From positions 50,553-74,552 of the forward strand of contig JANQHQ010000036.1 in the NCBI GenBank assembly GCA_028282595.1: DNA of 24,000 bases. Reading direction: 5' to 3'. The notes beneath the pieces are model-generated. The model ran no database searches, was not told the DNA's origin, and saw only the letters and a list, made by a program, of their open reading frames with translations. This stretch comes from Chlorobium sp. GTDB taxonomy: Bacteria > Bacteroidota > Chlorobiia > Chlorobiales > Chlorobiaceae. Of this stretch, positions 4,201-23,364 are shown in pieces (position 1 is the first letter of the stretch; each line of letters starts with the position of its first letter). A program made the position numbers and the translations under genes.

Positions 4201-4548
4201 ATGACCGATACATCATTCTCCGACTGGACAGCGATGAGCGACAAGACACTTGCCGGGCAGATAGGCGCTTTTGTGCGGCATCATCGCCTGGAACAGAACA
4301 AAACCCAGGATACGCTTGCACATGAGGCCGGCATCAGTCGATCAACGTTGAGCTTGCTGGAACGTGGCGAGACTGTCACCCTTGCCACGTTACTCCAGGT
4401 ACTCAGGGTGCTGGACCGGTTGCAGGTAATGAATGCATTTGTCGTTGAGGAGCGCATCAGCCCCCTGATGCTGGCCAAAATACAGAAAGAAAAAAGACGA
4501 CGAGCCAGAAGAAAGCAGGGCGACGATACAACGGAACACGATTGGTAA
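4201..4548 (+). CDS. hipB: XRE-family HTH antitoxin, HipB-like
   Basis: 115 aa. HTH_3 pattern (NKTQDTLAHEAGISRSTLSLLERGE). Stop lies 3 nt before the hipA start. Confidence 0.8.
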   Translation: MTDTSFSDWTAMSDKTLAGQIGAFVRHHRLEQNKTQDTLAHEAGISRSTLSLLERGETVTLATLLQVLRVLDRLQVMNAFVVEERISPLMLAKIQKEKRRRARRKQGDDTTEHDW

Positions 4549-4551
4549 GCA

Positions 4552-5856
4552 ATGGACGTAGCGGAAGTCAGAATATGGGGCGAGTTGGCTGGAGCTGTAG
4601 CATGGGACGATGCCGCCGGCCTGGCTGCCTTTGAATACGATCCCCGGCTCAAGGCAAAGGGGTGGGATCTGTCCCCCCTGAAAATGCCCGTTTCCGAAAC
4701 CAGAAGCACGTTTGTGTTTCCCGAGTTGCGTAAAAAAGCGAATCCCGGGCTGGACAGTTTCAAAGGATTGCCGGGGTTACTGGCAGACGTTCTACCCGAT
4801 CGATACGGAAATGAATTGATCAACCTGTGGCTGGCCCGGCAAGGTCGCCCGCAGAACAGCATGAATCCGGTGGAGATGCTCTGCTTTATCGGCACTCAGG
4901 GAATGGGTGCGCTGGAGTTCGAACCCTCTTTCTGGAAAGCGGAAAAAAGAACCTTCTCCGTTGAGATCGAGACTCTTGTGGACGTCGCAAAAAAGATGCT
5001 CACCAAAAAAGAAGCCTTTGCAGCCAACCTGGATGCGGATGCGAAAAAGACGGTGTCGGAACTTCTTCGTATCGGGACCTCGGCCGGCGGCGCAAGACCG
5101 AAAGCCGTGATCGCCTACAACGAAAAAACAGGAGAAGTTCGATCCGGCCAGACCAACGCCCCCAGGGGTTTCGAACATTGGCTATTAAAGCTGGACGGGG
5201 TGAGTGACGTGCAGTTGGGAACCTCTCACGGCTACGGCAGGGTGGAAATGGCATACTATACCATGGCACAAGCCTGCGGCATAATCATGATGCCGTCCCG
5301 GTTGCTCGAAGAAAACGAAAGAGCGCACTTTATGACCAAACGCTTCGACCGGGAAGGCGGATCGACGAAGCACCATATTCAGACCTTCAGTGCATTACAG
5401 CATTTCGACTACAACTCGGTTATGAGTTTCAGCTATGAGCAGCTCTTTCAAACCATGCGTAAGTTGAAGCTGCCCTATCCCGACGCGGAGCAGATGTTCA
5501 GGAGGATGGCGTTCAACGTGGTTGCCCGGAACTGTGACGACCACACCAAAAACTTTTCGTTCCGGTTGAAGCAGGACGCCAAATGGGAACTGGCGCCGGC
5601 TTATGATGTCTGCCACGCCTATCAGCCCAATCATCGATGGGTCAGTCAGCATGCATTGAGCATCAACGGAAAACGGGCGAACATCACGAAAGAAGATCTG
5701 CTGGCCATCGGCAATTCCATAAGCGTAAAAAAAGCCGCTGAAATCATTGACGAAGTCAATGCAGTTGTAGCGCAATGGAAACAATATGCCGATGACGTTG
5801 CGGTTTCACCCGGCCTGCGAGACCAGATCGCCAAAACCCTTGTTCACCTGAAATAA
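4552..5856 (+). CDS. hipA: HipA-family serine/threonine kinase toxin
   Basis: 434 aa. HipA N-terminal coupling region. GTSAGGARPKAV P-loop-like motif. Catalytic loop ARNCDDHTKNFSF. Confidence 0.9.
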   Translation: MDVAEVRIWGELAGAVAWDDAAGLAAFEYDPRLKAKGWDLSPLKMPVSETRSTFVFPELRKKANPGLDSFKGLPGLLADVLPDRYGNELINLWLARQGRPQNSMNPVEMLCFIGTQGMGALEFEPSFWKAEKRTFSVEIETLVDVAKKMLTKKEAFAANLDADAKKTVSELLRIGTSAGGARPKAVIAYNEKTGEVRSGQTNAPRGFEHWLLKLDGVSDVQLGTSHGYGRVEMAYYTMAQACGIIMMPSRLLEENERAHFMTKRFDREGGSTKHHIQTFSALQHFDYNSVMSFSYEQLFQTMRKLKLPYPDAEQMFRRMAFNVVARNCDDHTKNFSFRLKQDAKWELAPAYDVCHAYQPNHRWVSQHALSINGKRANITKEDLLAIGNSISVKKAAEIIDEVNAVVAQWKQYADDVAVSPGLRDQIAKTLVHLK

Positions 5857-6136
5857 TGTGTGCGAATCGCACAGGCCGGTCCATGCCGCCCCCGTCTGGA
5901 GTGATGCACGCTTTTGATGTCTCCAGGACCGCAGAATGGACATTTGCCGATAAGGAACTGCAACCGCACATAGAGGAGAAGACGAACAAAATATTTTTCA
6001 ACCTAATAAACAACGCCCCCTATTACTGGGAAACCTTGACTGGCAGAGGGAAAGTGGATACCTTTTTAGTTGTCCGGACATCCCCCGCACAAAGATGGAC
6101 AGTGCACAACATCGGCTTCAAAAAGGAACGAAAACA

Positions 6137-7402
6137 ATGAATCAGGAGACGAATAAAATCAACTGCCCTCACTGCGGCAAGGAAATAGATGTCAATGAGA
6201 TTTTATACCATCAGCTCGATGAAGAACTGAGGAAAAAATATAACGACCAGATTGCCGGAGAGCGTAAAGTGCTGGAGGAGAAAGAAGAAGAAATCAAAGC
6301 TGAAAAGGAGGCGATCGACAGGGCGGAAGAGGAGTATGCAGAGCGGGTTGCGACAGCCATAAAGTCGGGGGTGAAAGAGGAGCGGGAAAAACTCGAACGA
6401 TCGCTGAAACAGCAGGCAATGGAGGAGCAGGAGGAGAGGCTCGCCTCACTTCAAAAAGAACTCGACGACAAGACCGAGCAGGTAAAAGAGCTGAACAGGT
6501 CGAAAGCGGAGATAGAGCGCCTGAAACGTGACAAGGAAGAGCTGAGAGACAAAATAGAACTCGAAGCAGAACAAAAGATCAATGCGACCCTTGCCGAAGA
6601 AAAGGAAAAAATCCAAAAAGCAGCGGCTGAAAAAGCCCGGCTGAACATTTCCGAGAAAGATCATGTCATCAATCAGCTGAGAGAACAACTTGTGGAAGCT
6701 CAGCGTAAAGCCGAGCAGGGATCGATGCAGCTGCAGGGAGAAGTCCAGGAACTAGCCATCGAGGAGTGGCTTTCCGCGCAGTTTCCCCTCGATACCATCG
6801 ATGAAATTAAAAAAGGACAGCTCGGGGCAGACTGCCTGCAGATAATCAATACGCACACCCGCCAGAATTGCGGCGCCATCTACTACGAGAGCAAACGCAC
6901 TAAAAGCTTCCAGCCATCCTGGATCGAAAAATTCAAGGCCGATATACTCCAGAAGAATGCCGATGTCGGCGTTCTGGTAACCGAAGCCATGCCTGCCGAC
7001 ATGGATCGCCTTGGGCTGAAAGACGGCATATGGGTCTGCTCATTCGAAGAGTTCAAGGGATTGTGCACTGTGCTGAGAGAGTCGGTCATTCGTATCAGCA
7101 CGGCGCTCACCACCCAAGAGAACAAGGGCGAGAAAATGGGTATGCTGTACGATTTTCTGACGAGCAACGAGTTCCGACTTCAGATCGAGGCCATTGTCGA
7201 AGGTTTCACCCAGATGAAAGCCGATCTCGAGTCGGAGAAACGATCCATGCAGGGAATATGGAAAAAGAGGGAAAAACAGATAGACAAGGTGCTTCTCAAC
7301 ACCAATCACATGTACGGCTCCATCAAGGGTATTGCCGGTAGCGCCATACAGTCAGTCCCGCTGCTCGAGCTGCCATCAGGTGACGACTCCGAGAACAGCT
7401 GA
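6137..7402 (+). CDS. DUF2130-like protein: N-terminal zinc-ribbon, long E/K coiled coil, C-terminal PD-(D/E)xK-like domain
   Basis: The ORF is open from 6095, but the likely start is the ATG at 6137 (MNQETNKINCPHCGKEIDV). About 190 aa of heptad-like E/K/R-rich sequence follow. The C-terminus has GADCLQ...IYYESKRTK (D...ExK). Confidence 0.65.
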   Translation: MNQETNKINCPHCGKEIDVNEILYHQLDEELRKKYNDQIAGERKVLEEKEEEIKAEKEAIDRAEEEYAERVATAIKSGVKEEREKLERSLKQQAMEEQEERLASLQKELDDKTEQVKELNRSKAEIERLKRDKEELRDKIELEAEQKINATLAEEKEKIQKAAAEKARLNISEKDHVINQLREQLVEAQRKAEQGSMQLQGEVQELAIEEWLSAQFPLDTIDEIKKGQLGADCLQIINTHTRQNCGAIYYESKRTKSFQPSWIEKFKADILQKNADVGVLVTEAMPADMDRLGLKDGIWVCSFEEFKGLCTVLRESVIRISTALTTQENKGEKMGMLYDFLTSNEFRLQIEAIVEGFTQMKADLESEKRSMQGIWKKREKQIDKVLLNTNHMYGSIKGIAGSAIQSVPLLELPSGDDSENS

Positions 7403-7666: not shown

Positions 7667-7713
7667 CCTCTCTCTCTGCCTCAGGTTTCAGTTGCAGCGA
7701 CAGCCAGCCCTCT

Positions 7714-7741
7714 TCCTTTCTCAGCCAGTGACAAGCCATAC
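7714..7741 (-). repeat. 28-nt conserved element, copy A (5' leader of the YdeI-like gene)
   Basis: TCCTTTCTCAGCCAGTGACAAGCCATAC, 27/28 identical to 8302-8329. GACAGC is also shared further upstream in plus-strand coordinates (7699 / 8291). Confidence 0.8.
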
Positions 7742-7753
7742 CAGTGCTGAGTG

Positions 7754-8251
7754 CTAAAAAGTCGGATTGTTGTTCCCTATACTTCCTCCTGTCATCAAAA
7801 ACAAAAGCCTTGAGAACGCATCAATTGGCTGTATAGCATCCCAATGTTCCGCCAATTGTCCATTTTCCAGCCTGAAAGTGTCCGTTATGATAAACCCTTT
7901 TTTCTCGTCGCCTCTGTGTTTCGCTTGCATAGTGACATGGCTGTGTAAAACAACAAAATCTCCATCAGCCATAACCCGCTTTACATCAAAAGAATATTCC
8001 GGAAATCTTTTTGTCATTGTTTTCACATAACTTACAAGCCCGGATACCTCATCCGGTATTGCTCTATTGTGCTGTATATATGAGCCCTTTCCATACTTTT
8101 CGAGCGTGTATTCGAAATCATGCTCATTCATCAAGTGCTGAAAGAAGTCCAGAACAACCCTGACATTATCGGTTTCCTGTGGAGTCCAGTGATCTTGCAA
8201 GTGTTTGTCGATCTCAATTCTCGGTGCCACGTTCTGACTTACATTTTCCAT
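7754..8251 (-). CDS. SnoaL/NTF2-like fold protein (putative cyclase or isomerase-like)
   Basis: 165 aa. Pattern NVRVVLDFFQ...YIQHN...DGDFVVLH...TDTFRLENGQLAEHWD is typical of SnoaL-like NTF2 proteins. AGGAGG lies 8 nt upstream of the ATG. Confidence 0.6.
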   Translation of the reverse strand: MENVSQNVAPRIEIDKHLQDHWTPQETDNVRVVLDFFQHLMNEHDFEYTLEKYGKGSYIQHNRAIPDEVSGLVSYVKTMTKRFPEYSFDVKRVMADGDFVVLHSHVTMQAKHRGDEKKGFIITDTFRLENGQLAEHWDAIQPIDAFSRLLFLMTGGSIGNNNPTF

Positions 8252-8301
8252 AGTTAGCCTCCTCTTTCACTCATTCTATTGTTTTATAGTGACAGCTGCC
8301 A

Positions 8302-8329
8302 TCCTTTCTCAGCCAGTAACAAGCCATAC
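8302..8329 (-). repeat. 28-nt conserved element, copy B (5' leader of the SnoaL-like gene)
   Basis: TCCTTTCTCAGCCAGTAACAAGCCATAC. Same orientation as copy A and a similar distance (about 50 nt) from the downstream ATG. Confidence 0.8.
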
Positions 8330-8410
8330 TCGTACTTCATCTTTCTGGCAAGCTCTTTTCCCCTGTATCTAATTAATAGAAAAACTCTTAACGACTTATT
8401 GGCGTTACGG

Positions 8411-9863: not shown

Positions 9864-9871
9864 TCCGAAAA

Positions 9872-10372
9872 ATGACTGATAAACTGACAGAAAAAAAACG
9901 TAGCTGGAATATGAGCCGTATACGCTCTATTCACACAAAGCCAGAAATATTATTGCGTTCATTACTGCACCGAATGGGTTTTCGTTTTCGTTTGTATAGC
10001 AAACATCTCCCTGGTCGTCCAGACATAGTACTGCCAAAATACAAGACAGCGATCTTCGTTCATGGATGTTTCTGGCACCAACATCCTGGCTGTAATGAAG
10101 CAACCCTCCCGAAGACAAACCAAGAGTATTGGAAATCAAAACTTGAAAGGAACGTTATACGGGACAAGAAACACCAGCAAGAACTGAGAAAAGCAGGTTG
10201 GCGAGTCCTGCAATTTTGGGAATGCCAGTTGGAAAAGGATCCCATTCGTATTGCTATGCTCGTATCACTTAAACTCCGGCGAAAGGAAGCAGAAAAAAGA
10301 ACCTATGCCTTCCCTTCACGGGAAAAGCTTCTCAAAATGGCTGAATCTCATGCGAATTATCGCAAGAAGTAA
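9872..10372 (+). CDS. vsr: Very-short-patch repair endonuclease
   Basis: 166 aa. SWNMSRIRSIHTKPE, GRPDIVLPKYKTAIFVHGCFWHQH and the following EYW pattern are diagnostic of Vsr. Confidence 0.9.
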   Translation: MTDKLTEKKRSWNMSRIRSIHTKPEILLRSLLHRMGFRFRLYSKHLPGRPDIVLPKYKTAIFVHGCFWHQHPGCNEATLPKTNQEYWKSKLERNVIRDKKHQQELRKAGWRVLQFWECQLEKDPIRIAMLVSLKLRRKEAEKRTYAFPSREKLLKMAESHANYRKK

Positions 10373-10382
10373 AGTATTACTG

Positions 10383-11444
10383 TTAAATGTTTTTCGAATT
10401 CCAGTCATATAATGTTTCACGAATAGCCTTGCCCAAGGCAGCACCGAGTTGCGGCGGAATCGCGTCTGAGACCTGACGGATTTGATCGCTGAGCGTGCCC
10501 AGCAACTCGTAGTCTTCAGGAAATCCTTGAAGTAGCATCGCTTCATAGACACTCAGCCTTCTATCGGCATTCGGGTGTACATGGATCTCCCGGTTTCCGT
10601 AGGCAACGGTCAAACTGGGCTTGTCCCATTGCAGAACACGAAACGACCTCCCCTGCTTGTGGCCATTTTTTAAAGACCCATCAGTGAATTTTCTGGAGCG
10701 AGGGGACATGGTCCAGTGGTTCGGATGGAACGCGATATCTTCCTTCTTCGTCCCCTGCTTAAAAAAAAGCGGTGCAGGTAAATCCTTCAATTTACTCGCA
10801 ACCGTAAGAGGTACTGTCGTCTCCGCTTCTGGAAACGTGAACTTGATATTGGGATACTTGACCTTGTTGAATCCAACAAGAAACACGCGGCGCCGGTGTT
10901 GGGCAACTCCAAAATGTGCGGCATCGAGTTCCTCCTCGAAAAGCTTGAATCCAGCACGGGAGAACAGCCTCTTGATTGTGTTGTACTCCTTTCGGTGCTT
11001 TGCAGACCTGATGCCTTTTACATTCTCGAAAATGAAAAAGTCGAGATCATATTCCTCATTGAGAACGCGAAGTATGCATGCATAGCGACGCGGCAAAGTG
11101 TGCCTTACGTCATCGCCGTTGAAATGCACGTTTCCACTAGAGAAGGTCTGGCATGGTGCACCACCGATCACGCCCCGCGGCTTAACTGAAACACATTTGA
11201 GCTGGTACAAATCTAGGATAGTAGAGGGATATGTGTGCGCAAGGTCCGCCACACGACACACCGTCTGCCCTCGATTGTGGTTGTAGCTTTTCGCCGCCAC
11301 TGGGTCTATGTCAAGGGCTAACTCTACAGAGAAACCAGCGGACGAGAAACCCAAATCGAAACCACCGCAGCCGGAAAAGAAGCTGATGACCGTTTTTAGC
11401 TGTGCTGTATTCTCCTTGATGTTATTCTGTATTTCTTCCTGCAT
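10383..11444 (-). CDS. DNA (cytosine-5)-methyltransferase
   Basis: 353 aa. Motif I FSGCGGFDLGF, motif IV GGAPCQTFS, motif VI FIFENVKG, motif VIII QRRRVFLVGF, then a variable region, then RRLSVYEAMLLQGFPEDY and a degenerate motif X (VSDAIPP). Confidence 0.9.
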   Translation of the reverse strand: MQEEIQNNIKENTAQLKTVISFFSGCGGFDLGFSSAGFSVELALDIDPVAAKSYNHNRGQTVCRVADLAHTYPSTILDLYQLKCVSVKPRGVIGGAPCQTFSSGNVHFNGDDVRHTLPRRYACILRVLNEEYDLDFFIFENVKGIRSAKHRKEYNTIKRLFSRAGFKLFEEELDAAHFGVAQHRRRVFLVGFNKVKYPNIKFTFPEAETTVPLTVASKLKDLPAPLFFKQGTKKEDIAFHPNHWTMSPRSRKFTDGSLKNGHKQGRSFRVLQWDKPSLTVAYGNREIHVHPNADRRLSVYEAMLLQGFPEDYELLGTLSDQIRQVSDAIPPQLGAALGKAIRETLYDWNSKNI

Positions 11445-11547
11445 AAATCCTCAGTTAGTCCTATAAATTACGGTGTTTTGGGTCTCAATGTAGTCACTGG
11501 AACGATAATCACGTTTTAGACCGTACATCGCCACACACGCTCCTATT

Positions 11548-11593
11548 GGCATACTGGTCAGTGACGGATGGGCATACTGGTCAGTGACGGATG
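11548..11593. repeat. Perfect 23-bp tandem duplication (GGCATACTGGTCAGTGACGGATG x2) spanning the nuclease stop codon
   Basis: Copy 1 is 11548-11570 and copy 2 is 11571-11593, identical at all 23 positions. The length is not a multiple of 3. Confidence 0.95.
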
Positions 11594-12637
11594 CCTATCT
11601 AAAGAATCTGTTACGCCACGGACAACAATGGATGATAGCGATGGCGAATCAGCCTGCCCAATTCGCAAACAGATCTTCCCGTTCCGCAAAGGAGTAAACT
11701 CCTCTAGGATCCCACGCACATCAGAGGGCCACTTTGCGTCAATGTCCATTTGACGAGCATCCCAATACGCGCTACATGCAGGTCTGAACAGGCATAGCCT
11801 GCAATGCTCGGGCAGGGCTACCGCGAGAACGGTAGTGTCCATGGTTCCGTCTTGCACGGCGTCAATTCGGTTGTTCGCAGCCCGCAGAAACTCCTTTGCC
11901 TCGTGAAGAAGGCGTTCGGCATGTTCTGGCTCAAAAACAACCTCTATAGGCTCACCTTGAAGCGGAATTACCTCCAATCTGACAGGCCAAGTATCCGTTC
12001 TTTGTCTGTAGAGGGCTGCGTAGAGTTGCATTTGAATTCTGTATGCCTGCTTGAGTTCACGGGAACACTTTTCTTGTCCCGACTCCAAAATGGCTCCGCT
12101 CTTGTAGTCACTGAGGACCACACCCTCAGTCGTCTCGCTTGCACGATCAATGAATCCGCCGAGCTCCCCCTCATCTGATTCTACCCAGAGCTCAAATTCT
12201 GTCGCACGACGGGATGGCTCGGGGAGCTTGCCAGAACCCCGGTGCGCGTCGCGGGCTATCTCCACAGCCCTACTGTATGTCCGCAGTCTACGAACCTGGA
12301 AATCTGGAATGCTCCGGCTCAGGGGTACCTGGTGTCTCCTTAGCGGGGAAAGCTCCATGCGTGCCTCCGCCTCCGAGACAAGAGCTTTCCATCTCTCATC
12401 GACTCCTTCATTGCCGACTCCTTCCAACTCGCCTCGACCTGCAGCCTCAAGAATCCGATGGGCGATGCTGCCAAGTTCTGCGTGCGGGGATGGCGGGAGG
12501 AGAGAGTCGTTGCCAGACGCAGTCCATACTTCTCGCAGCAAGCACGCTTGCATTGCCGTATAGCGAGACGGCGATACACGACGAAACCGCTTCATGGTTA
12601 GCCGCTCCAACAGTAGATTTGTGCCAGATTTCTCCAT
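11558..12637 (-). CDS. Cas4/RecB-like PD-(D/E)xK nuclease with four-Cys (Fe-S type) signature
   Basis: 359 aa. N-terminal Cys (MQACLLRE), GSIAHRILE, FELWVES, GGFIDRA, VLSDYKSG (D/ExK), QMQLYA (QxxxY) and C-terminal CRLCLFRPAC (CxxCx5C). The start ATG overlaps the helicase stop as TAATG (12635-12639). Confidence 0.8.
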   Translation of the reverse strand: MEKSGTNLLLERLTMKRFRRVSPSRYTAMQACLLREVWTASGNDSLLPPSPHAELGSIAHRILEAAGRGELEGVGNEGVDERWKALVSEAEARMELSPLRRHQVPLSRSIPDFQVRRLRTYSRAVEIARDAHRGSGKLPEPSRRATEFELWVESDEGELGGFIDRASETTEGVVLSDYKSGAILESGQEKCSRELKQAYRIQMQLYAALYRQRTDTWPVRLEVIPLQGEPIEVVFEPEHAERLLHEAKEFLRAANNRIDAVQDGTMDTTVLAVALPEHCRLCLFRPACSAYWDARQMDIDAKWPSDVRGILEEFTPLRNGKICLRIGQADSPSLSSIVVRGVTDSLDRHPSLTSMPIRH

Positions 12638-15600
12638 TATGTACCCAACCGCTGATATACCCAGCTCATCCGCCGGTGAAGATTAAACGTGTCGACTATA
12701 CAAACCGGGGCGTCTGCCCCAAGTGATGCCCGGGCTTCTGCGAGAATTCCATCAGGCTGCTCGGTATTCCAGAGGGGATGGGTCAGGATGACACTCTGGT
12801 CGGCAATGTTCCAGCCATGGAGGGGGCCGAATTCGGCAGGCTCACACGACTGGAACGACTGACAGAAAGTCGTACATAGCGAGCCAGAGAACTCTAACCA
12901 GCCAGTGAGCTCGGGCGACGAGAAATCGCCGTTTACACCACAAACGTATGCGGGATCTGCGAGTATACGCAGAATTGACATCCCCAGCCTCCAATCGAGA
13001 AGGCTGTGGTAGCTCATGTTTCGATAGAGGCATAGACAGTCGTAACAGGCCGATTGGCATGCGTTGGCATGTTCCGCAGAAAGCAGTTTCTCGATGAATG
13101 TGTCTTCGTCGTGTTCAGCCCCAGTGATTATGTCGAGCACTCGTCGCCAGTTGTCTTCCTGTGACAGCCAAGCCGTGAAACCAGCACCATTCTCAAGGTG
13201 GTCATTTACAATGACTTCGCCTGCGTGTGTTCCGTCATCAAGTTCGATGGCCCGCACGGTGCTGATGTCAATTTCCTCAGGGTCAATATCGAGGTCTTCC
13301 GCGACAACCGAGCGCAGAATGAATGCGGCTGAGTAATAGGCGGCCTTCACGGCGGCAGCCTGCCCCAGTTGGTTGCGCGGGATAAGATCGAGACACAGCG
13401 ACGGGTGCAACGAATGTGGGCGTATCCTGAGCACGTCCGTGACTTTTGGCGCTGCCAGAGCAAACGAGTCGGTCTGCGCGGTCTCTGCTGTGAAGAGCAC
13501 GTTGTCATCGCCCCGGATGTTCTGGTATCGCTCATCGATCCACTGGTGCGAGAGCGTGACTCCTCCACGGCTCCATCGAGCGGACCCAAGCCCACCAGTA
13601 AACAGTCGACCGGCGCGATCATTGATCCTGTAGACGTGTCCGCCAGACGTTGGAACAAGACCGGTGTTCGTGCTTGGGACGACCACAGGGGGGACATCGG
13701 TTTTTTCGGCCACGGAGCTCGTGCCACGCGGCAGGAATTCGTCATCTGCTTTCGCGTCCACTCCATGGCTGAATGACGTTCTAAACGCTGCGGGGATAAC
13801 AATTTCGAACACACGAAATGCATTCTCACCCTCACGGCTGTTTCCGCAATCGGGACAGCCTGCCATGTCAGGTTCGGCATTATAGGTGTCCACGAAATGA
13901 CAGAGGTCACATCGTGCCATCCACATGCGCCGGGGAAATGGGTTACCGGATACAGGATGCCAAGATGGATCGGGGAGAAGCGGACATGTAAAACCGATAG
14001 AGGTATAGACCCGTTTATCCTTTGTCTTCTGAGAGCCCGGCGCAAACTCCGTAATGGCAAGATCAAGATCACGGTCAATAGTCATGGCTTCTCGACGACG
14101 GAATCCGTGAAACAGCAACCTGACACGGGATGGCATCCCATACATGGGCAGAATTGCGCCTTCCGCAAGCCTTTCGGCCAGTCCTTCGCCGACGAGCTCT
14201 ACGCTGTTCGCACATTCTTGGACTTGTGCGAAAAGGTTTTCCCGGACGTACGTCACCATGTCGCCAACCGAGACCCCTTCTGTACTTGCCAGAATGGAAG
14301 CGACGACTTGGGGTACCTCCGGCGAAGCTGTGAGCCATTCCTCAACAGCCTGCCGCCGGTCGGGATTCCCGAGCCAATCAGCGACAGTGCCGAACTCGCC
14401 ATGGCTATCCGGCGGCGTTGGGCTGTCCCACCACCGAACGCCCGCTGCGCGGAACGCCTCCGACAAACAGGCTTTCGCTAAAAGGCGTTTGGCAATCTCT
14501 TCTCGCCTCATAGACAGAAAAGGAACAGGAGGCAAGTCGCCCGTGATCCGGCGGGGGCGGCTGTAGTAGAACTCGTCATGACTCCGGCCTCGACACAGCG
14601 TCAGCACCGCTGCAAATGCCTGACCACGCCTGCCCGCTCGGCCCACGCGCTGCTGGTAGTTGAATCGCATGGGCGGCATGTTTGCCAACACAACAGCCTG
14701 CAAATTGCCGATGTCCACACCGACTTCCATGGTGGTCGTAACGCTAAGCAGGTCAATCGAATCAACGAGAAGAATTGGCGGACGAGCTCTATCTGCTTCG
14801 GTTCGCACCACAACATCTCTAAAGCATCGCTGACGATCTGGTTGATCGTCCGTCTGAGCCGTCAATTCCTCGCAATGGAGCCGCAGGGGAGCGCGATGCT
14901 CAACGGCCTCGCTTGCGTAGTAGTTTTTGCTATGAAGGTCTTGGCACTGCGCATCCGGTTCACGGTTGATCTCACCGAGGCAACCAGTGCAGACCCCGGC
15001 TGCGCGGTGCATGTGGACACGCTGACAGGACGGACACACCCAGATTGGATCGTCTTGAAGCCCTAGCCTCACAAGCAGACGGTGCGCTTGCAGTTTCGCA
15101 CTCTCATGTCCACCTGCTTGGCAAATCGCATCCCACGTGCCTGCCAGAAGCGTTGACGCGTCCGCACCGTTCTGTGTGGCACAGGCTCGGATGTAGTTTC
15201 GGAGTCTTGCCCTTGCTGGGGGATCCCAATTCATCCAATCGTCAAGCCAGTCTGGAGCAGGCTGCCGTTCTTGATGGTAACGGTAGAGGTCGCCCATGAT
15301 TCGCACGCATCCGTGGCACAGGTCCCGAAAAGTATCCGGCGGCAGCCCAGCACGCCCTGCATGTTCTTCCCATACCTCGTCAGATAGATCAAGGCATGCG
15401 TACCCAAGCCCAGCCGACTCAAAGCCGAAGTAAAGGCGACTGAATAACACATTCATGATTTCCGTGCGAACCTTGCCGCGCACACGGTCTCTTCTCTCAA
15501 TCGCACTCTCCGGCAAACCATTGCGCCAGCATGCATCACTGTTTGTATAGTCAAAGAATTCAGTCCAGTGGTGATCTTCGCCTTCGAAATTGAACATTTG

Positions 15601-18483
15601 GTACATCACGTCATTGCCTGCGGGGTTGATGCCCAGTTTTTTCAAACGCTTGATCAACAGCAGTGAACGTGTGCCTGACACATCTTCCGCATCAAATTCA
15701 TATAGCAGGCGTAGTGGAACCATTCGCGTCGAAGCTTGTCGCCTGATCGCTTCGAGCGCGCTTGAGGCTTTCTGACGCCCCTGTTCCAGGTTGTCCCGAA
15801 GAATTCCGGCAAGGCCGTCGGGTATCTCCGTTCTCGCGATCTCGATTTCGCGCAATAAGCGCTCTGCAATTCCCGGGTTTTCCGCGGCACATGTACGTGC
15901 TCCAGCGCATTGTGCCTCACCGTGTTCTTCCAAGTCTGCCAGCAAAAGGCCTTCACTGACCGCAATACGGTGCAACTCGTCATACATGGCTTCACGCACA
16001 AGGTCCAAGTAATGTGTTCGTTCAATTCCATTCGAGATGGACGCTGCATCCTCTCTGCTGTCCGAGAAAACCACGAGTTTGCGGGTATCCCCTTCGGGAA
16101 GGCTATAGAAAAGCTCCTTGGATAGAAGCTGACTCACGCGAGAAAAACCTGTTCTAAATCCACGCACTGGTGATGTGCGGTACATTTTTCTGCTGTAGTT
16201 GGCCGCACAGTTGGGACAACATGATGGTAGCGCCGAGAAGTTCTGCTCATCGTCAGCCCCATCGATGGCGGGAATGACATACAGGTATCCCGGAATAGCC
16301 GTGCCTTCTGGCGCCAGTGGACCGTTCGGAGCATCGGTAACGCGACCACTGAATGCATCAAGGTGTTTGATGGCCCAGCGAGCTTGTTCTGAACCGTCGA
16401 GGACAACACGCGGCTGACGCCATGTTCGCGCATCATCTTTTAGCATGCTTCTGCCTCTTGGCCAGAAGATCGCAAAGTCACCGTAGGTCTTCCGGTCCAC
16501 AAACCGAGCCGCCTGTTTGTCGGGAAGCCCTTCAATGTCCGGGTCCGTGCTCAGGATCTCGATTCCTCTCCCATCGCGATTCCGAAGTCGGCTGCCACCA
16601 AAGAAAATAGTCCCGCACTGCTCGCAGTATAAAACCTCCAACACACGATGCTGTGTATCAGGATTCTCGCAGAAAATCCGGTTCTGCGAGAAGAGTTTGC
16701 CTGCCGGTCTGACGCCATCAAAATGAGCACCGTCACACTGGCATCCGGGCTGAACGCATGCCCAGAGGCCTTCGATGTTCCTGAAGAACCAGTGAAATCG
16801 AAAAGATGGCAGTATTGGTGCTGCATGCTGAGAGGCTGCAATTCCGCGCGCGACAAGAAGTCCACGCACTGCTTGCATCGCCATCTCCTCGCTGCCCGCG
16901 TCTGGAAAAACTCGGGCCGCAAAGTCAGAAATCGATATTGCCCTGGTACGATTCCCGTCCTTACATGCAAGGAGCATGGTCTTAGCTAACGTTTCCTGCA
17001 CGGACTGCAGAGCAGAACACAGGTGCGTCTGAGGATCGTCACCAGTTGCAGCAGGGTTCAGCGACGTTGCTAGCAACGTACAGGATTCAGCGAGGCTGTC
17101 AGTAGTATTACCAGCTCGGATGCCATCGGCAAAATTTGCGAATGCTGCAGCATAGAGAGTACCGTCATCATCCTCGGCAATCGGTTGTTCAGATCCAGCG
17201 AGGATCTGAGAGGCTGACCAGTTACATCCGAAGAAATCTGAGAGAAACGATAGACTGTCGGTATTGGATGGATCGAGGGACGCACTGGACGCCAAGATGC
17301 GCAACCTGGGATCGGTTGGTGAAAGACCAAGCCTGCGGAAAAGAAGCCGCAAGAGATATGCAACTTCCGTTCCTGAAGTCCCGCGGTAAAGATGAAGTTC
17401 ATCAATGATCAGATGAAACACGTTACCTGGTTGTTCGAGCCATTGACGAGTCTGCTCAAATATTGGCGAATCAGCTTCTCTCATCAGCATGATACTGAGC
17501 ATGCTGTAGTTCGTGATAAGGATATCGGGCGGCGATTGCTGCATATCCCAGCGAGAGCGCATTTCAGCACCATCAAGACGAGGGAAAAAATAGATACTGT
17601 CGCGTGCCGCTTCGCGTTCTTCTTCGGACGATGCTTCTGCCTCCCGCCGAGCGGCGTGCACAGCCGCCTCGGTTGCGCCTCGATCCAGAACCGTTAGTTC
17701 TCTGGCAAGTCTCTCAATGCGCCCTCGATCCGGGTTCCCGCTTTGGTTCTGCTCGTGACCTGGTACGGGGGTGTTCCCGGTGTACCGACCAAAGTAGATC
17801 CGGTTTCCGTTCATGTGTTCAGAGCACCATTCTCGAGCTGAATCGGAATCCAGTGCACGCCGGAGACGTGTTAGCTGGTCCTCTACAAGCGCGTTCATGG
17901 GATATAGAATAAGGGCTCGCACGGCTGCCGGTCTGGTCTCATGTCCTCGCTGCGGAACGCGGTACGAACGTGCTATTCGGTTTCTGCTATTGCAAGATGC
18001 TTGCCAATCCTCGTTCGACCACCAATCATTGACATGAGGATCCTGCGCTCCGGGTTTTCCCCAATGGATGCTTTCAGCAGCAATCGACGCAAATAAAGGT
18101 AACAAGAAAGACTCTGTCTTACCGGAACCGGTCCCTGCCGTAACGACTGCATTCTGGCCGGTGACGGCACGCTGCAACATTGCAATCTGGTGGGCATAAA
18201 GGGGGTAGTTGCCTACCAAACCTGAGAGCGAGAGCTCTTTGAATCTCGCGACAGCTTCGGGGCTCATACCAGGCAAGTCTTCTGCTGTCAGTGCAGCAAG
18301 AGGCCGGTCGGTTGTGTAACGTGGAAGAGGTTCAATCCAAGGCTCTTGGTTTAAAATCCCCGGACGCCTTAGCATTTCTTCACGCTCCTGCTCCAATCCT
18401 GGAAATTGAGTGCCAAACGCTGTCTTCAGGTACAGGATGAAGTTGTCCCGGATCTTTTCAAAAGCACCAACTGGGTCATTCAT
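12637..18483 (-). CDS. Giant DExH-box helicase fused to a DUF1998 (MrfA/YprA-type zinc-binding) domain; DruE-like / DrmA+DrmB-like
   Basis: 1948 aa. Helicase motifs:
- motif [12 protein letters not shown] (about 18115-18135)
- motif Ia [13 protein letters not shown]
- motif Ib ILITNYSML
- motif [11 protein letters not shown] (17392-17403)
- motif III ILASSAS
- motif [13 protein letters not shown] (aa ~803)
- motifs [19 protein letters not shown]...[12 protein letters not shown] (14620-14655)
The C-terminal region has CDLCHF-x14-CPDCG and [27 protein letters not shown] (12994-13059), which is DUF1998-like. Confidence 0.85.
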
Positions 18484-18635
18484 AACAAATGTCCTTAAAA
18501 CTTGCTTTACTGACAGAATTAATCAACAAAAACGCTGTAACACATTGAGCATCGCATCAATCAAAGGTTATCATGATCATGTGTTCTTGTGCCTCTTGGT
18601 GATTTTCATGAAATATACCCTCAATGACAGAACGT

Positions 18636-19628
18636 TTATCGAATTTCAACTCTTGCCGGTCTTTGTCCTACCTTTGAGAGAGCAACCAGCGCGATCTGTG
18701 GAGGAACGTCCTCATACATCAGCCAATCTGCGCATTCACAGCCGGGGACTAGCTTCTCCTCAGGTTTGTGGACAGGTGGTTGCCCTGAGCACAGGCAAAC
18801 GGCTCTGGATATGACTGAGGGCAGCGGAATCCTTACAGGAATGCACAACCGGTATCTCCTTTCATCATAAGCTGCCACAGTTATTCCTTTGGCGTTAAGG
18901 TTTAAATAACGGCCCCAGTCTCGATCCACCTTTGCTCCTGAACCATCCCGGAAAAATACATACGTAGGAAGTGTTGTTGTTGGATTGAGATATTTAGAAA
19001 GGCGAGGAAGCGAATCCGAACGTGTCCGCTGAAACATGTGCGTGCTAACGCAGAAATCGTAACGAGTCCAGCCGAAGTTTTCAGGGATACTGTAGTCCAG
19101 CATTTTCTCGTACTCCAAAAGCGTGCCGCACCAATTCACGAACGTCCATGCTGGAGGAATTTTTGGGCAACGAAGCCCAAGCTTCTCAGTGAACGCAGCC
19201 AATACCTTATCTGATTCAGATTGAATTTTTATGGTGTCAGGAAACAGACCATGAGGTCCGGGATAACGTTTAGTGATGATCTTAATAGAGCCGCTTTGCG
19301 CATTTGCTGCTTCGGCGAGCTGTTCTTGAGTCTTCAAGCAACGAGCACCGGTAAGCACAGCAACTGGCAATCCTGCACGTGGTAGCCGACAAAGTGAGGC
19401 AGGTGATGCTGTTATTATACTCTTTCCATTTTCGTAGTAAGCATCGCAGTGTCCGAGGGCTTCATAGCATTGCAATAGTCCGCTTCGGATAGCTGCTAAG
19501 TTAGATGTACGCTCTTCGCTCAATTTGTTTGCGGAAAGGAAATCAATGGCATCACAGTAATCAGCCCATCTCATTTTTCCACGAGCAGATATGACAAAAA
19601 GCAATCGGTTAGGATCAGCGTATATCAT
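18636..19628 (-). CDS. Hypothetical protein, 330 aa, no recognisable motif (operon partner of the helicase)
   Basis: Clean ORF. The ATG is preceded by AAGGAGG 7 nt upstream. Its start overlaps the end of the 684-aa gene by 14 nt. Its stop lies 152 nt from the helicase start. No P-loop, nuclease or HTH signature visible. Confidence 0.7.
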   Translation of the reverse strand: MIYADPNRLLFVISARGKMRWADYCDAIDFLSANKLSEERTSNLAAIRSGLLQCYEALGHCDAYYENGKSIITASPASLCRLPRAGLPVAVLTGARCLKTQEQLAEAANAQSGSIKIITKRYPGPHGLFPDTIKIQSESDKVLAAFTEKLGLRCPKIPPAWTFVNWCGTLLEYEKMLDYSIPENFGWTRYDFCVSTHMFQRTRSDSLPRLSKYLNPTTTLPTYVFFRDGSGAKVDRDWGRYLNLNAKGITVAAYDERRYRLCIPVRIPLPSVISRAVCLCSGQPPVHKPEEKLVPGCECADWLMYEDVPPQIALVALSKVGQRPARVEIR

Positions 19629-21669
19629 GTGCGACCTCCTTATAATCCTTCCACAATGCTTGCAGTGCAGGAAGTGAAGGGGTAGAAATCCGCTTGCGCT
19701 TGTGCCAAAGGACTTCCTTCCAAAGGCGCAAACGCCGATGGTCCATGCATTGGATTCTTTTCGGTTTTTCGCTGGAGGGGTCTAAACCGCAATAGATGGC
19801 ATTTCCCTTGCCTTTCTTTTTCATAATCACTGCCCAAACAGGCTTCCAGTCATCTGATATGGATTCTCTTGGGCACTCAACAATTTCTCCTGGATTTCGT
19901 CCGATAAAATAGATTCGATTACCTTCGCTCGGCGGCAAGTAAACTTCAAGGCTCAAATCAGGGGGCGCAAAGCCGTCAACAATTATACCGGAACATGATT
20001 CATTTGAGCTACTATCGACCCTGTTACCAAACTTGTTTAATTGTGTTTCCGCTACCGTATTTAACCATGCTGATGATTCCAAGGCGTATAGAGATTTTGT
20101 ACGAACGCAATCGCCATTACGGCGTACTTCGAGTCTTATAAGCTTTTGGGCGCAGACCTCATCGGGGATATTATATAAACCAGTATCACAATCTGCCTTC
20201 AGAGGGATGTCGTTGCAAAACAGTTCTACTGGCTCGGGGGCTCCCCTAACCTCTATACGAGGCAGGCCGAATGTGAAATACTGGTTTCCACGATATTTAA
20301 GACCGCCAATAAACCGGATGCGCAATAGAGTAGGAAATGCGAGGAGAGGCAGAGTATCGCGAATGATCTCGTCGGAATTTGCCCTTTGAATTGAGTACAG
20401 CCGCCAACCTTCTGGCAAACCGGCAAGCATTTGAACCTCAGAAAAACCAGTGCAACAAGCAGTACCCCAAGTTTGTATTTTATCAATGTAATCCTTGTAA
20501 ACTAGCAGGTAAAATGGCTTGTCCTGAGGTATCTGGCTTTCCTCGATACATCCGTCGAAGCCAAATGGGGAAGCACTGACCATAACTCTGACCGGCCGCC
20601 TTGAAAGTGAAGTCCGCCATGAGTGTTCAGTGTCCTCAAGATTCAAGCCAACATGCCAATCAAGAAATGCAGCATCAAATATATTTTGTGTCTCATCCTC
20701 ACAAAGTATGGTTGACCACCCCTGCCTGTCCTCATAGCAATATAATGGCTCTGCACCATCATTTTGGACAAGTCGCAGCCCTTCCTCAGGGTACTCACGA
20801 TTCGATCTGCACCGCAAAGAAAAGTGGACCGTTTTGGCGGTTGGGTCAAGTGTCATCCCTATGCGTAGGGTCCCGAGCGAACTTCCTGTCTTCTCCCCAA
20901 GTTCCACCTGTGGCGGAATAGTACCATCCCAGTCTTCAAGTTCGTCCATAATCGCGGCCAGGAGCACTTCATGCGCTGCGGACTCCTCGGAGCTACGATT
21001 TTCCAGAAGACCCTTCGTGTGAGGCAGCAGGTAGTGGTGCATTTCTCGAGCGAGCAGATGGGAGAGTTCCCTGTCTGCAGGTGGGGAGGACGGATCGAAA
21101 CCGTTCTCAGCAAATAGCAACGGGAGCTTGTGGCGTTCGTCATCGGTTAGAATTGTCTGTGCTTTTGGCAGCCCTACGTACTCCCTGCTCCCCAGAATAT
21201 CAGCATGAAAGATGCCTAGTTCGCCGTTCTTATCCTGGTTGCTCCACACTTCAAGGTCAAACCAGAGTTCATACATCCTGTCGAAAGACGGATAGCTTCC
21301 TGCCACAGGCTCTACTCCCAGCAAATGACGAAGTCCAGGGTAGTAGGACGCACGTGAGAATCCCGGAACCGGAACGGTATCAGCAAGTGAAAACAGCGTA
21401 AGATATGCAAGGTAAGGAGGGTATTCCAGATGTCGATCGCGCCAAGCGTCATAGGCTTGAAGTGCCTGCTGACAAATGCTCCAACCGTGACGGGAATTCC
21501 ATGGTGGCCCTGTTTTTACAGCGGCAAGAAAATCATTGTGATCAACGTCATATGTAGCACCAATCTCATTGATTAAGTCAATAGTGACATAAAGGAAAAC
21601 ACGGGTGCCACTTCTATCTGAATTGAAAAAGCGTTTTCCTATAGCATTATTCCATGACAAATAATCCAC
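19615..21669 (-). CDS. Hypothetical protein, 684 aa, no recognisable motif (first gene of the candidate defence operon)
   Basis: Long uninterrupted ORF with a GTG start (MDYLSWNNAIGKRFFN...). No obvious SD. No Walker, nuclease or HTH motif seen. Lower GC than the helicase by hand counts. Confidence 0.65.
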   Translation of the reverse strand: MDYLSWNNAIGKRFFNSDRSGTRVFLYVTIDLINEIGATYDVDHNDFLAAVKTGPPWNSRHGWSICQQALQAYDAWRDRHLEYPPYLAYLTLFSLADTVPVPGFSRASYYPGLRHLLGVEPVAGSYPSFDRMYELWFDLEVWSNQDKNGELGIFHADILGSREYVGLPKAQTILTDDERHKLPLLFAENGFDPSSPPADRELSHLLAREMHHYLLPHTKGLLENRSSEESAAHEVLLAAIMDELEDWDGTIPPQVELGEKTGSSLGTLRIGMTLDPTAKTVHFSLRCRSNREYPEEGLRLVQNDGAEPLYCYEDRQGWSTILCEDETQNIFDAAFLDWHVGLNLEDTEHSWRTSLSRRPVRVMVSASPFGFDGCIEESQIPQDKPFYLLVYKDYIDKIQTWGTACCTGFSEVQMLAGLPEGWRLYSIQRANSDEIIRDTLPLLAFPTLLRIRFIGGLKYRGNQYFTFGLPRIEVRGAPEPVELFCNDIPLKADCDTGLYNIPDEVCAQKLIRLEVRRNGDCVRTKSLYALESSAWLNTVAETQLNKFGNRVDSSSNESCSGIIVDGFAPPDLSLEVYLPPSEGNRIYFIGRNPGEIVECPRESISDDWKPVWAVIMKKKGKGNAIYCGLDPSSEKPKRIQCMDHRRLRLWKEVLWHKRKRISTPSLPALQALWKDYKEVAHDIR

Positions 21670-21865
21670 GTTACCAAGTATTCAGTTTTATATCAACCAC
21701 GTCTTTTTGGTAAAATTCGCTGTACATCAACGCACAAGGCTTCCCTTGTCGATTATAGATCGAAAAAACACAGGAGCCAACTTCAAGGGTGGCAGAGCCT
21801 CAAAGTTATGAAAAAGCAATACCATATAATATACTGTGAACACACAGCGAGAGAAGAGAAAACAC

Positions 21866-21883: not shown

Positions 21884-22038
21884 CAAGCACGTTTCGCAAC
21901 TCACGAAACATCACATTCAGAAGCTTGCTCTGACTTCCCGTCTTTAGAGGCAATCGAGTGCATAGCCGGATGAAGCAACACGAAAACCCCTGTTTTCACA
22001 GAGGCTTTGAGATTTGATTATGTCCGATCGCTATGCTG

Positions 22039-22111
22039 TGGAGCTTAGGGGAGTCGAACCCCTGACCTTCTCATTGCGAACGAGACGCTCTACCAACTGA
22101 GCTAAAGCCCC
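22039..22111 (-). tRNA. tRNA-Ala (anticodon CGC)
   Basis: The 73-nt reverse complement GGGGCTTTAGCTCAGTTGGTAGAGCGTCTCGTTCGCAATGAGAAGGTCAGGGGTTCGACTCCCCTAAGCTCCA folds as a cloverleaf. It has a 7-bp acceptor stem with the G3:U70 Ala identity pair, anticodon loop TTCGCAA and T-loop TTCGACT. CCA is not encoded. Confidence 0.92.
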
Positions 22112-22836: not shown

Positions 22837-23364
22837 TTAGTTACGATTTTCGGAAAGATCCCGGATCATGCTCTCCACGATACCTTTCTGCTTTTCCGCG
22901 TCGAGGTTCGCCATGATGATTTTCTCCGCGCCTTTCACGGCCAGATCGGCGACCTCGTTCCTGAGCTCGTCGAGAGCACGGCGTTTTTCCTGCTCGATCT
23001 CTTCCTTCGCGGATGCGATCATCCTGGACGCCTCTTCCTGGGCTTTCCGGGTAATATCGGAGCGCAGCTTGTCGCCGTACTCCTTTCCTTCGCGAATGAT
23101 CTTTTCAGCGTCGGCATCGGCCCGGGCAAGCAGCTCCGTATTTTTTCTCAGCGCGGCTTCGGCCTCTTCCTTCGCCGTGTGGGCACGGTCGATCGACGAC
23201 TGGATTCCTTTCTCCCTCTCCTCGAGGGCGCCGAGAATCGGACCCCACGCAAACTTTTTGAGAATGAAGAGTACGATGAGAAAGGTAACTACCGTCCAGA
23301 AGATCAGGCCCGGATTCGGATCAAGCAGGCCGCCGCTAAGAAATACAATTCCTGTAGCAAGCAT
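22837..23364 (-). CDS. atpF: F-type ATP synthase F0 subunit b
   Basis: 175 aa. A single N-terminal TM helix ([24 protein letters not shown]) is followed by a long charged helix. Lies between atpE and atpH. Confidence 0.88.

Follow-up and report, generated by a model that had tools for sequence, protein, structure and literature searches.

The 24,000-nt stretch of Chlorobium sp. DNA analysed here (hereafter the window; positions 50,553 to 74,552 of contig JANQHQ010000036.1) contains a cassette of genes that we assign to the Druantia defence systems. Five of the genes are open reading frames (ORFs) on the minus strand, as follows: druF (19615..21669, 684 amino acid residues, GTG start), druL (18636..19628, 330 residues), druE (12637..18483, 1948 residues), druK (11558..12637, 359 residues as encoded here and 387 in intact relatives), and a gene for a DruM-like C5 methylase (10383..11444, 353 residues). 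An earlier sequence-only reading of the window had described these five co-oriented genes, and all are present where it placed them. Its two gene junctions are also present, namely a 14-nt druF/druL overlap, with AAGGAGG just upstream of the druL ATG, and a TAATG stop/start junction at druE/druK. Missing from its five-gene list was vsr (9872..10372, plus strand, 166 residues), which is convergent with the methylase gene across a 10-nt gap and lies within a segment shared at 97% identity with relatives. The limits of that segment, drawn from blastn (97.3% identity) and from boundary alignments, are 9866..21692. The cassette is six genes in one 11.8-kb unit, not five.

The five minus-strand products were identified by a scan against the hidden Markov models (HMMs) of PADLOC-DB, with Pfam and NCBIfam alongside. 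Druantia models match all five: DruF, DruL, and DruE end to end, DruK over most of the protein, and the methylase in two stretches. Druantia type IV, which consists of DruF + DruL + DruE, was introduced by Payne et al. 2021 (PMC8565338) with 168 instances in 11 phyla, and it is again one of the four clades of DruE in Loeff et al. 2026 (10.64898/2026.05.13.724313), with 18% of 566 loci. Since DruF, DruL, and DruE are all matched, the locus falls in Druantia type IV. Thus, as judged by the profile matches, it belongs to the type II/IV Druantia lineage and is formally type IV, a fresh example of a catalogued, computationally defined system and not a new kind. The sequence-only reading had correctly seen a Druantia-related defence locus around a DruE-type helicase fused to DUF1998. 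It had gone on to propose an undescribed hybrid or else a new subtype of Druantia or DISARM, and had named matches of all five proteins to canonical Druantia profiles as the result that would make the system a known one. That is essentially what the scan returned, and the proposal of novelty is not borne out.

DruE matches the PADLOC models DruE2 (PDLC00014, E = 0, residues 1–1946 on model positions 1–1923 of 1928) and DruE4 (PDLC00051, E = 0). It is a YprA/MrfA-like superfamily 2 helicase with a Walker A sequence GTGSGKT (residues 117–123), a DELH box (361–364), a further motif at 1277–1286, several CxxC zinc ribbons, and a C-terminal MZB/DUF1998 domain. Pfam finds DEAD and Helicase_C, and MZB/DUF1998 weakly (1.6e-4 on a C-terminal fragment); it finds no nuclease domain. 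Walker A, DELH, and motif VI are invariant in 17 DruE homologues, and several of the CxxC pairs are conserved. Bell et al. (PMC12458937) report an "inactivated Vsr domain" in DruE; the C-terminus of the present DruE shows no similarity to the Vsr of the window by BLASTP. The closest solved relative is PDB entry 9wae_A, "Helicase", of 1970 residues (E = 2.8e-247; 1108 bits with a profile), compared with 8.9e-38 for type III DruE (9tu7) and 1e-10 for MrfA (6znp). Entry 9wae_A belongs to a series with 9waf and 9wds–9wdy. No paper for it was found in the searchable literature, and it is perhaps the earliest solved DruE of type I, II, or IV.

DruF and DruL are the two upstream proteins in which the sequence-only reading saw no recognisable motif. 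DruF matches DruF4 (PDLC00054, 3.2e-180) with residues 1–682 on model positions 1–677 of 678, and DruF2 (PDLC00021) at 2.2e-161. DruL matches DruL4 (PDLC00056, 1.7e-62) with residues 7–329 on positions 3–324 of 330, and also the C-terminus of the DruF2 models PDLC00023 and PDLC00016. Neither protein has a Pfam or NCBIfam match, and sequence and profile searches of the PDB with either returned nothing. A fold comparison, which the sequence-only reading had suggested for both, gave AlphaFold2 (AF2) models but no significant fold match. The DruF model (pLDDT, or predicted local distance difference test, 84; predicted template modelling score, pTM, 0.70) has an N-terminal helical domain (~1–250), a beta-rich middle (~260–640), and C-terminal helices, and its PDB fold matches are limited to weak Ig-like/beta-sandwich ones; the DruL model (pLDDT 90.8, pTM 0.88) has weak winged-helix-like matches only. 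Conservation in DruF falls mostly on aromatic or structural residues; in DruL, G59-H60 is invariant, C61 nearly so, and R96 and R275 are conserved. No catalytic assignment seems justified for either protein.

What ties both proteins to type II DruF is profile alignment with hhalign. Against the profile of the canonical ~850-residue type II DruF, the DruF profile aligns over the first ~500 columns (Prob 98%, E = 1.8e-13) and the DruL profile over columns 551–817 (Prob 94%, E = 8.8e-8). Neither shows similarity to the DruG profile by hhalign (Prob <1%). In the Bacteroidota/Ignavibacteria, a single ~940-residue protein matches DruF4 and then DruL4, that is, a DruF::DruL fusion. Because of these fusion proteins, iterated HMMs for DruF and DruL drifted; they were dropped, and single-sequence phmmer, PADLOC, and hhalign were used instead. 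The hhalign results, the fused proteins, and the matches of DruL to the C-termini of long DruF2 models together show that DruL is a C-terminal module detached from the long DruF of type II. It follows that type IV would be type II with DruF split and DruG missing. The spacer between druL and druE is only 152–166 nt in the window and its closest relatives. In a Methanobacteriota locus (L022, 4395–5192) and in L088–L097, all with DruE 73–80% identical to that of the window, an extra gene of 265 residues lies between druL and druE in a gap of ~0.8 kb; the L022 product has a NOV_C/DUF3883 domain (Pfam 1.2e-12).

DruK matches the PADLOC DruK models PDLC00060 (4.6e-18) and PDLC00059 (1e-16), with residues 21–298 on model positions 2–269 of 347. 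Pfam assigns it to PDDEXK_1 (6.4e-19), NCBIfam gives a match to the AddA nuclease motif, and the Cas4 match is marginal (3e-4). The signature of a Cas4-like Fe-S PD-(D/E)xK nuclease translationally coupled to the helicase, noted in the sequence-only reading, is real, the residues C32, D164, D177-x-K179, Q202..Y206, and C279-x2-C282-x5-C288 being invariant in 14 homologous sequences. The companion statement, that Druantia has no nuclease, is incorrect, since PADLOC-DB holds DruK (PD-(D/E)XK) models that match the 359-residue protein. The family comprises 274 clusters at 50% identity (E <= 1e-30). Sequence and profile searches of the PDB found no solved relative. No paper in the searchable literature uses the name DruK, which exists as a PADLOC-DB model.

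The prediction of a C5 methyltransferase is upheld by matches to Pfam DNA_methylase (3.6e-49), TIGR00675 dcm (4e-42), PADLOC DruM2 (PDLC00030, 1.3e-76, two stretches), and the generic MTase_II model (PDLC03378, 6.2e-72). The methylase sequence shows FSGCGG (motif I), PCQ (motif IV), ENV, and QHRRR, and the closest solved structure is M.HaeIII (1.3e-33). The vsr product is a very-short-patch T:G mismatch endonuclease by Pfam (PF03852, 3.8e-31), NCBIfam (TIGR00632, 1.3e-44), and PADLOC (Vsr, 7.7e-29). Such enzymes repair the T:G mismatches that arise from 5-methylcytosine deamination beside Dcm-type methylases; the two genes of the window, convergent and 10 nt apart, form a Dcm–Vsr module. The predicted catalytic motifs of DruE, DruK, and the methylase are intact.

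In relatives whose DruE is 73–98% identical to that of the window, the methylase is 75–99% and Vsr 64–98% identical. Orthologous methylases are still 45–52% identical where DruE is at ~50–55%, despite changed position and strand. In a few lineages, the methylase has been swapped for a different C5 methylase, as in a Kiritimatiellia locus (L001) where it is 24% identical at a DruE identity of 69%. Where DruE is ~79% identical, DruF, DruL, and DruK are only 55–65% identical. The pattern is that of a methylase co-inherited with DruE and of accessory proteins DruF, DruL, and DruK that evolve faster than DruE.

To place the cassette among its relatives, 80 genome loci around DruE homologues were assembled, and their six-frame ORFs were scored with the window proteins and with HMMs derived from them. 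Sufficient flanking sequence was available for 70 of them, in which DruK occurs together with a C5 methylase in 34, a methylase without DruK in 23, neither in 13, and DruK without a methylase in none (Fisher 7e-5, without a phylogenetic correction). Of the 57 loci with a methylase, 34 have Vsr; of the 13 that have none, 0 do. The gene set is thus co-conserved in other genomes, the opposite of what the sequence-only reading had said would refute it. The same six-gene architecture is found in metagenome-assembled genomes (MAGs) of Methanobacteriota (L022, DruE 79% identical) and Omnitrophica (L014), and the Kiritimatiellia MAG L001 has the same set with the methylase–Vsr pair upstream. DruK is present in loci of Bacillota, Acidobacteriota, and Gaiella, with the methylase elsewhere in the locus. 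Bacteroidota/Ignavibacteria have the order fused DruF-DruL, DruE, DruK, methylase, and sometimes Vsr. Cyanobacteria and Bdellovibrionales have DruF-DruL-DruE only, and Alpha- and Betaproteobacteria have the canonical type II order DruM-DruF2-DruG-DruE, usually with Vsr nearby. A methylase that comes last rather than first, which had been taken as a distinguishing feature, is no such thing, its position varying among close relatives. In a DruE neighbour-joining tree, the window groups with L022 and L001 in a clade with split DruF and DruL, and the DruK + methylase state is found in several separate clades. The architecture with DruK is, on these counts, common among Druantia II/IV relatives.

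A scan of metagenomes seeded with a 6-sequence DruK alignment gave 63 DruK loci; a further set (L146–L161) was left out as AddA/AddB/RecB-size proteins that match DruK by the nuclease motif alone. DruE is directly upstream of DruK in 53 of the 53 loci with more than 400 nt of upstream sequence. The earlier question of whether the Cas4-like gene always follows the helicase therefore has a two-part answer: only 34 of the 70 genomic DruE loci have DruK, but where DruK genes occur they follow DruE, 53 out of 53. A C5 methylase is found in 35 of the 45 metagenomic DruK loci with at least 1.3 kb of downstream sequence, and directly downstream of DruK in 32 of those 35. The remaining 10 offer no view upstream of druF, where some relatives carry the methylase.

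Counterparts of DruE, DruF, and DruL that are 98%, 94%, and 97% identical lie on a 534-kb metagenomic scaffold. The 97.3% nucleotide identity is limited to window positions 9866–21692 and is common to three relatives (L081, L082, and L083), with edges 6 nt beyond the vsr start codon and 23 nt upstream of the druF GTG. Boundary alignments show unrelated sequence on both sides of the cassette in the window and its relatives. In L081, the neighbours include type IV secretion system (T4SS) genes (TrbI, CagX, VirB8, and TrbL), RadC, and an EcoRII-C fragment. A near-identical cassette with unrelated flanks indicates that the six genes travel, or are recombined, as a single 11.8-kb unit. As to carriage on mobile elements, DruL was found on two cyanobacterial plasmids only and in no phage record. 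Apart from druK, every cassette gene is an intact long ORF whose product is 94–99% identical to that of the relative. Against this 97%-identical relative, mismatches cluster in the 5′ third of druF (21000–21692), with 66 differences in ~700 nt, and in the druL–druE spacer region (18500–19000), with 28 differences and a 14-nt indel; outside these two hot spots there are ~5–13 differences per 500 nt. The clustering may reflect local diversification or recombination.

In the window, druK carries a lesion. A repeat search found a 23-bp tandem duplication (11545..11590, two copies, 96% identical) inside the druK 3′ end. The duplicated unit, CATCCGTCACTGACCAGTATGCC, shifts the frame into an early TGA stop at 11558–11560. 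Reconstruction of the intact frame places an out-of-frame druK 3′ remnant at 11451..11557 on the minus strand. No other difference from the relative breaks the frame; the alignment with L082, otherwise 97% identical, has a 23-bp gap at the duplication, which is absent from L082 and L083. The DruK of the window, 359 residues ending in "..PIRH", loses the conserved last ~28 residues. With one copy of the duplication removed, a 387-residue DruK is restored, nearly an exact match to that of L082, with a C-terminus conserved across phyla. The intact allele has 6 nt between the druK stop and the methylase ATG; in L082, 14542 is the last position of DruK and 14549 the first of the methylase. The 359-residue form is also recorded in a Logan assembly. 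The nuclease core and the Fe-S cysteines lie upstream of the lesion. Since the frameshift removes a conserved C-terminus, the DruK nuclease arm may be weakened or dead in this genome.

We propose, with a probability of about 0.6, that this Druantia II/IV system, formally type IV, has a core of DruF, DruL, and DruE, an accessory DruK, and self-marking by the methylase–Vsr pair, and that it carries out a methylation-gated helicase–nuclease restriction. The methylase would mark host DNA at its target motif, and Vsr would repair the T:G mismatches left by deamination of 5-methylcytosine. DruE would load on an invader's DNA at exposed single strands or junctions and translocate 3′-to-5′, by analogy with type III DruE, a 3′-to-5′ helicase on single-stranded or forked DNA that acts with the exonuclease DruH (10.64898/2026.05.13.724758, 10.64898/2026.05.13.724313, PMC13192584). 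DruF and DruL, which are fast-evolving and have no catalytic signature, would act as sensor or regulator subunits. DruK, an Fe-S exonuclease coupled to DruE, would degrade the unwound, unmethylated DNA and so supply the nuclease that DruE lacks. Gating of the nuclease by methylation is suggested by the finding that, in the genome loci, DruK never occurs without a methylase (34 versus 0). A precedent for self-marking is type I Druantia, which modifies host DNA to mark self according to 10.64898/2026.05.12.722862, citing Ojima et al. 2024. The methylation-discriminating helicase–nuclease mechanism of the sequence-only reading thus stays the best account of the locus, and what supports it is co-occurrence.

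A number of points weigh against this proposal. The searchable literature yielded no experimental test of a type II or IV Druantia, and the methylation gating is drawn from co-occurrence alone. The 13 loci that have the DruF-DruL-DruE core with neither methylase nor DruK, from cyanobacteria and Bdellovibrionales, indicate that the core can work, or at least persist, without methylation. Two metagenomic loci (L096 and L124) have DruK and no methylase within 5–10 kb downstream, the region upstream of druF being out of view in both. Type III tells self by DNA structure and not by methylation. For neither DruF nor DruL does a fold match point to a particular role. Finally, with druK frameshifted, the mechanism may not operate in this genome.

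If the core senses DNA structure in the manner of type III, the methylase and Vsr could be a solitary passenger module or the remnant of a type II restriction–modification system. Besides the 13 of 70 loci with no C5 methylase and the methylation-free working of type III, this would account for the variable position and strand of the methylase, for its replacement by an unrelated C5 lineage in some relatives such as L001, and for the nearly equal fit of the window's methylase to the generic MTase_II model (6e-72) and to DruM2 (1e-76). A passenger would hardly be expected to accompany DruK in 34 of 34 loci, to be as conserved as DruE across the clade and kept through rearrangements, or to be enclosed exactly, together with vsr, by the cassette boundaries; canonical type II, moreover, requires DruM (PMC8565338). 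We consider a structure-sensing core with a passenger methylase unlikely, though it deserves attention. A stronger doubt concerns the present genome, in which the cassette could be a decaying or inactive remnant, the druK frameshift having disabled the effector and left a methylase–Vsr pair and a helicase complex without defence. The loss of ~28 conserved C-terminal residues and the recurrence of the truncated form in a Logan assembly are in keeping with such decay. The other genes, however, are intact, their proteins being 94–99% identical to those of the relative, the frameshift comes after the nuclease core and Fe-S motifs, Druantia systems that have no DruK exist, so that the core might still act, and a tandem duplication can revert. 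Decay in this genome is a tentative reading, which we regard as somewhat doubtful yet take seriously.

Two other identities for the locus have little to recommend them. A class 2 DISARM variant, or a DISARM–Druantia hybrid, might be suspected from the YprA helicase + DUF1998 ancestry common to DruE and DrmA/DrmB (PMC12458937), from a match of DrmMII to the methylase (3.9e-38), and from a weak match of DrmA to DruE (1e-8). The DrmA match, though, covers ~65 residues (~1244–1310) of the helicase C-terminal domain, no cassette protein matches DrmB, DrmC, DrmD, or DrmE in PADLOC, no phospholipase D (PLD) match appears in PADLOC or Pfam, and the DruE, DruF, DruL, and DruK models fit far better (E = 0, 3e-180, 2e-62, and 5e-18). 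We give DISARM membership hardly any credence. That the module serves DNA repair rather than defence is scarcely more credible. YprA/MrfA helicases do include bona fide repair enzymes (PMC12458937), Vsr is one, and the nuclease motif of DruK resembles that of AddA/AddB; but the HMMs place DruE in the Druantia defence branch, the distribution is patchy across phyla, near-identical cassettes sit in unrelated contexts, including beside T4SS genes, relatives carry the 265-residue NOV_C/DUF3883-domain gene as an insertion between druL and druE, and the accessory subunits evolve fast. Methylation-gated restriction by a Druantia II/IV system is therefore the reading we prefer.

It is tempting to extend that proposal to the lineage, namely that the DruK-bearing Druantia II/IV systems form an undescribed methylation-gated branch, in which a Cas4-like Fe-S effector depends strictly on a co-inherited methylase, Vsr is a partner in genome upkeep, DruE has no nuclease of its own, DruL is a split-off part of DruF, and types II and IV differ by the presence or absence of DruG. 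We hold this wider view with some reserve, rating it possible and a little short of even. If true, the DruK-bearing branch would be mechanistically distinct from the structure-sensing type III, and, should methylation gating hold, the lineage would link structure-sensing type III with DISARM-like epigenetic discrimination. The locus itself, six genes in 11.8 kb with sharp edges, represents the least studied lineage of Druantia in clean and compact form. The comparison also yields rules that are absent from the searchable literature: DruK always comes after DruE and never occurs without a C5 methylase in the genome loci, the methylase and Vsr are co-inherited with DruE, and DruL is a detached DruF C-terminus. 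Together, the frameshifted allele of the window and the 97%-identical intact allele of another genome are a ready-made pair for assessing the contribution of DruK.

The base composition and surroundings of the cassette are as follows. G+C is uneven within the operon, at 0.47–0.48 in druF/druL, 0.54–0.58 in druE/druK, and 0.47–0.50 in the methylase gene, which may reflect mosaic origin or different selective regimes. A sigma-70-like promoter candidate (21752..21780, minus strand, TTGGCT-17-TATAAT, 10/12 consensus matches) lies 83 nt upstream of druF. It is a candidate by consensus only, in a region where such sites are no more numerous than in shuffled sequence. This site, the best promoter-like one, is not part of the segment in common with the relative, and expression of the cassette would then start from host-specific flanks in each context. 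Beyond the druF end of the cassette are a tRNA-Ala(CGC) gene (22038..22111) and a gene for the B subunit of the F0F1 ATP synthase (22837..23364), whose product shares a 90%-identity cluster with Prosthecochloris sp. GSB1. G+C falls from 0.56–0.61 in the flanks to 0.44–0.50 across much of 4–12 kb and 18–22 kb. The sequence-only reading had spoken of a tRNA-adjacent island; the tRNA gene and the drop in G+C are there, but neither a tRNA-derived att repeat (a repeat of the tRNA 3′ end) nor an integrase was found in the window, so the term rests on adjacency and the G+C drop and is a reasonable, unproven label. The toxin–antitoxin module that it placed next to the genes is real, a HipB/HipA pair on the plus strand (4201..5856), but lies ~4 kb past the cassette and is not directly adjacent. 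In full, the plus-strand stretch 4201–7402 encodes a HipB-like helix-turn-helix protein of 115 residues, a HipA kinase of 434 residues, an overlapping 94-residue ORF, and a 435-residue DUF2130 protein with a weak SMC-related match, and may constitute a further defence or toxin module within that low-G+C region. Two 44-nt direct repeats, 82% identical (7705–7748 and 8293–8336), flank a SnoaL-like gene (7754–8251).

The proteins and the locus may now be set beside known systems. DruK resembles Cas4/AddB nucleases of the RecB family in having the RecB motifs (D, D-x-K, and Q..Y) and a 1+3 cysteine Fe-S pattern. It differs from them in an extra conserved C-terminal domain of ~90 residues, in its marginal Cas4 score, and in its context, since it is never linked to CRISPR or AddA and always follows DruE. 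A reading of Druantia I/II as "type IV CoCoNuT" (Bell et al. 2025, PMC12458937) was also considered. It fails here because no CnuB-like protein is present in the cassette: Pfam, NCBIfam, and PADLOC find no AAA/McrB-like or coiled-coil protein, and the AF2 models of DruF and DruL have no long coiled coil. DruG, the likely CnuB-like component, is absent; from other loci, it gives weak coiled-coil-like Pfam matches only. With class 2 DISARM, the locus shares the overall logic of a YprA-family helicase with DUF1998, a nuclease, and a C5 methylase. In the locus, however, helicase and DUF1998 are fused in one 1948-residue protein, the nuclease is Cas4-like and not PLD, and there is no DrmE.

Type III Druantia (DruH + DruE) is likewise built on a YprA-like DruE helicase with MZB and has an exonuclease partner, DruH in type III and presumably DruK here. 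Ig-like beta-sandwich repeats have been shown for DruH; for DruF they are suggested by weak Foldseek matches alone. In contrast to type III, the DruE of the window has no PLD nuclease domains and the locus no DruH, while type III leaves host DNA unmodified and lacks a methylase. The distance between the two DruEs is considerable (E = 9e-38 for 9tu7 versus 2.8e-247 for 9wae).

The closest comparisons are with types II and IV. Type II (DruM, DruF, DruG, and DruE; Doron et al. 2018) has a DruE of the same clade, the DruE2 models scoring slightly above DruE4, and its DruM2 and DruF2 models match the C5 methylase and, end to end in the case of PDLC00021, DruF. Vsr is often nearby in canonical type II loci, and the DruF and DruL of the window are together homologous to the single long type II DruF. 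Where the locus departs from type II is in the split of DruF into two genes, the presence of DruK, and the lack of DruG. Membership of canonical type II was accordingly set aside: the DruM that type II requires (PMC8565338) is matched, but no DruG model matches any of the five proteins at E <= 0.01 in PADLOC, and the cassette leaves no space for a further gene.

The published wording for type IV (PMC8565338) says that it has no DruM, and the DruM-like methylase of the window, accompanied by Vsr in this locus as in many relatives, is the sole departure from it; most relatives also have such a methylase. In three Streptomyces loci (L066–L068), a divergent C5 methylase lies immediately upstream of druF, and the type IV example of Payne et al. 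is from Streptomyces pratensis; a methylase next to druF in loci of this kind fits ill with the statement that type IV has none. In all else the locus is like type IV, with DruF, DruL, and DruE in that order, each matching the type IV models end to end, DruG absent, and an accessory PD-(D/E)XK protein that fits the DruK models of PADLOC-DB.

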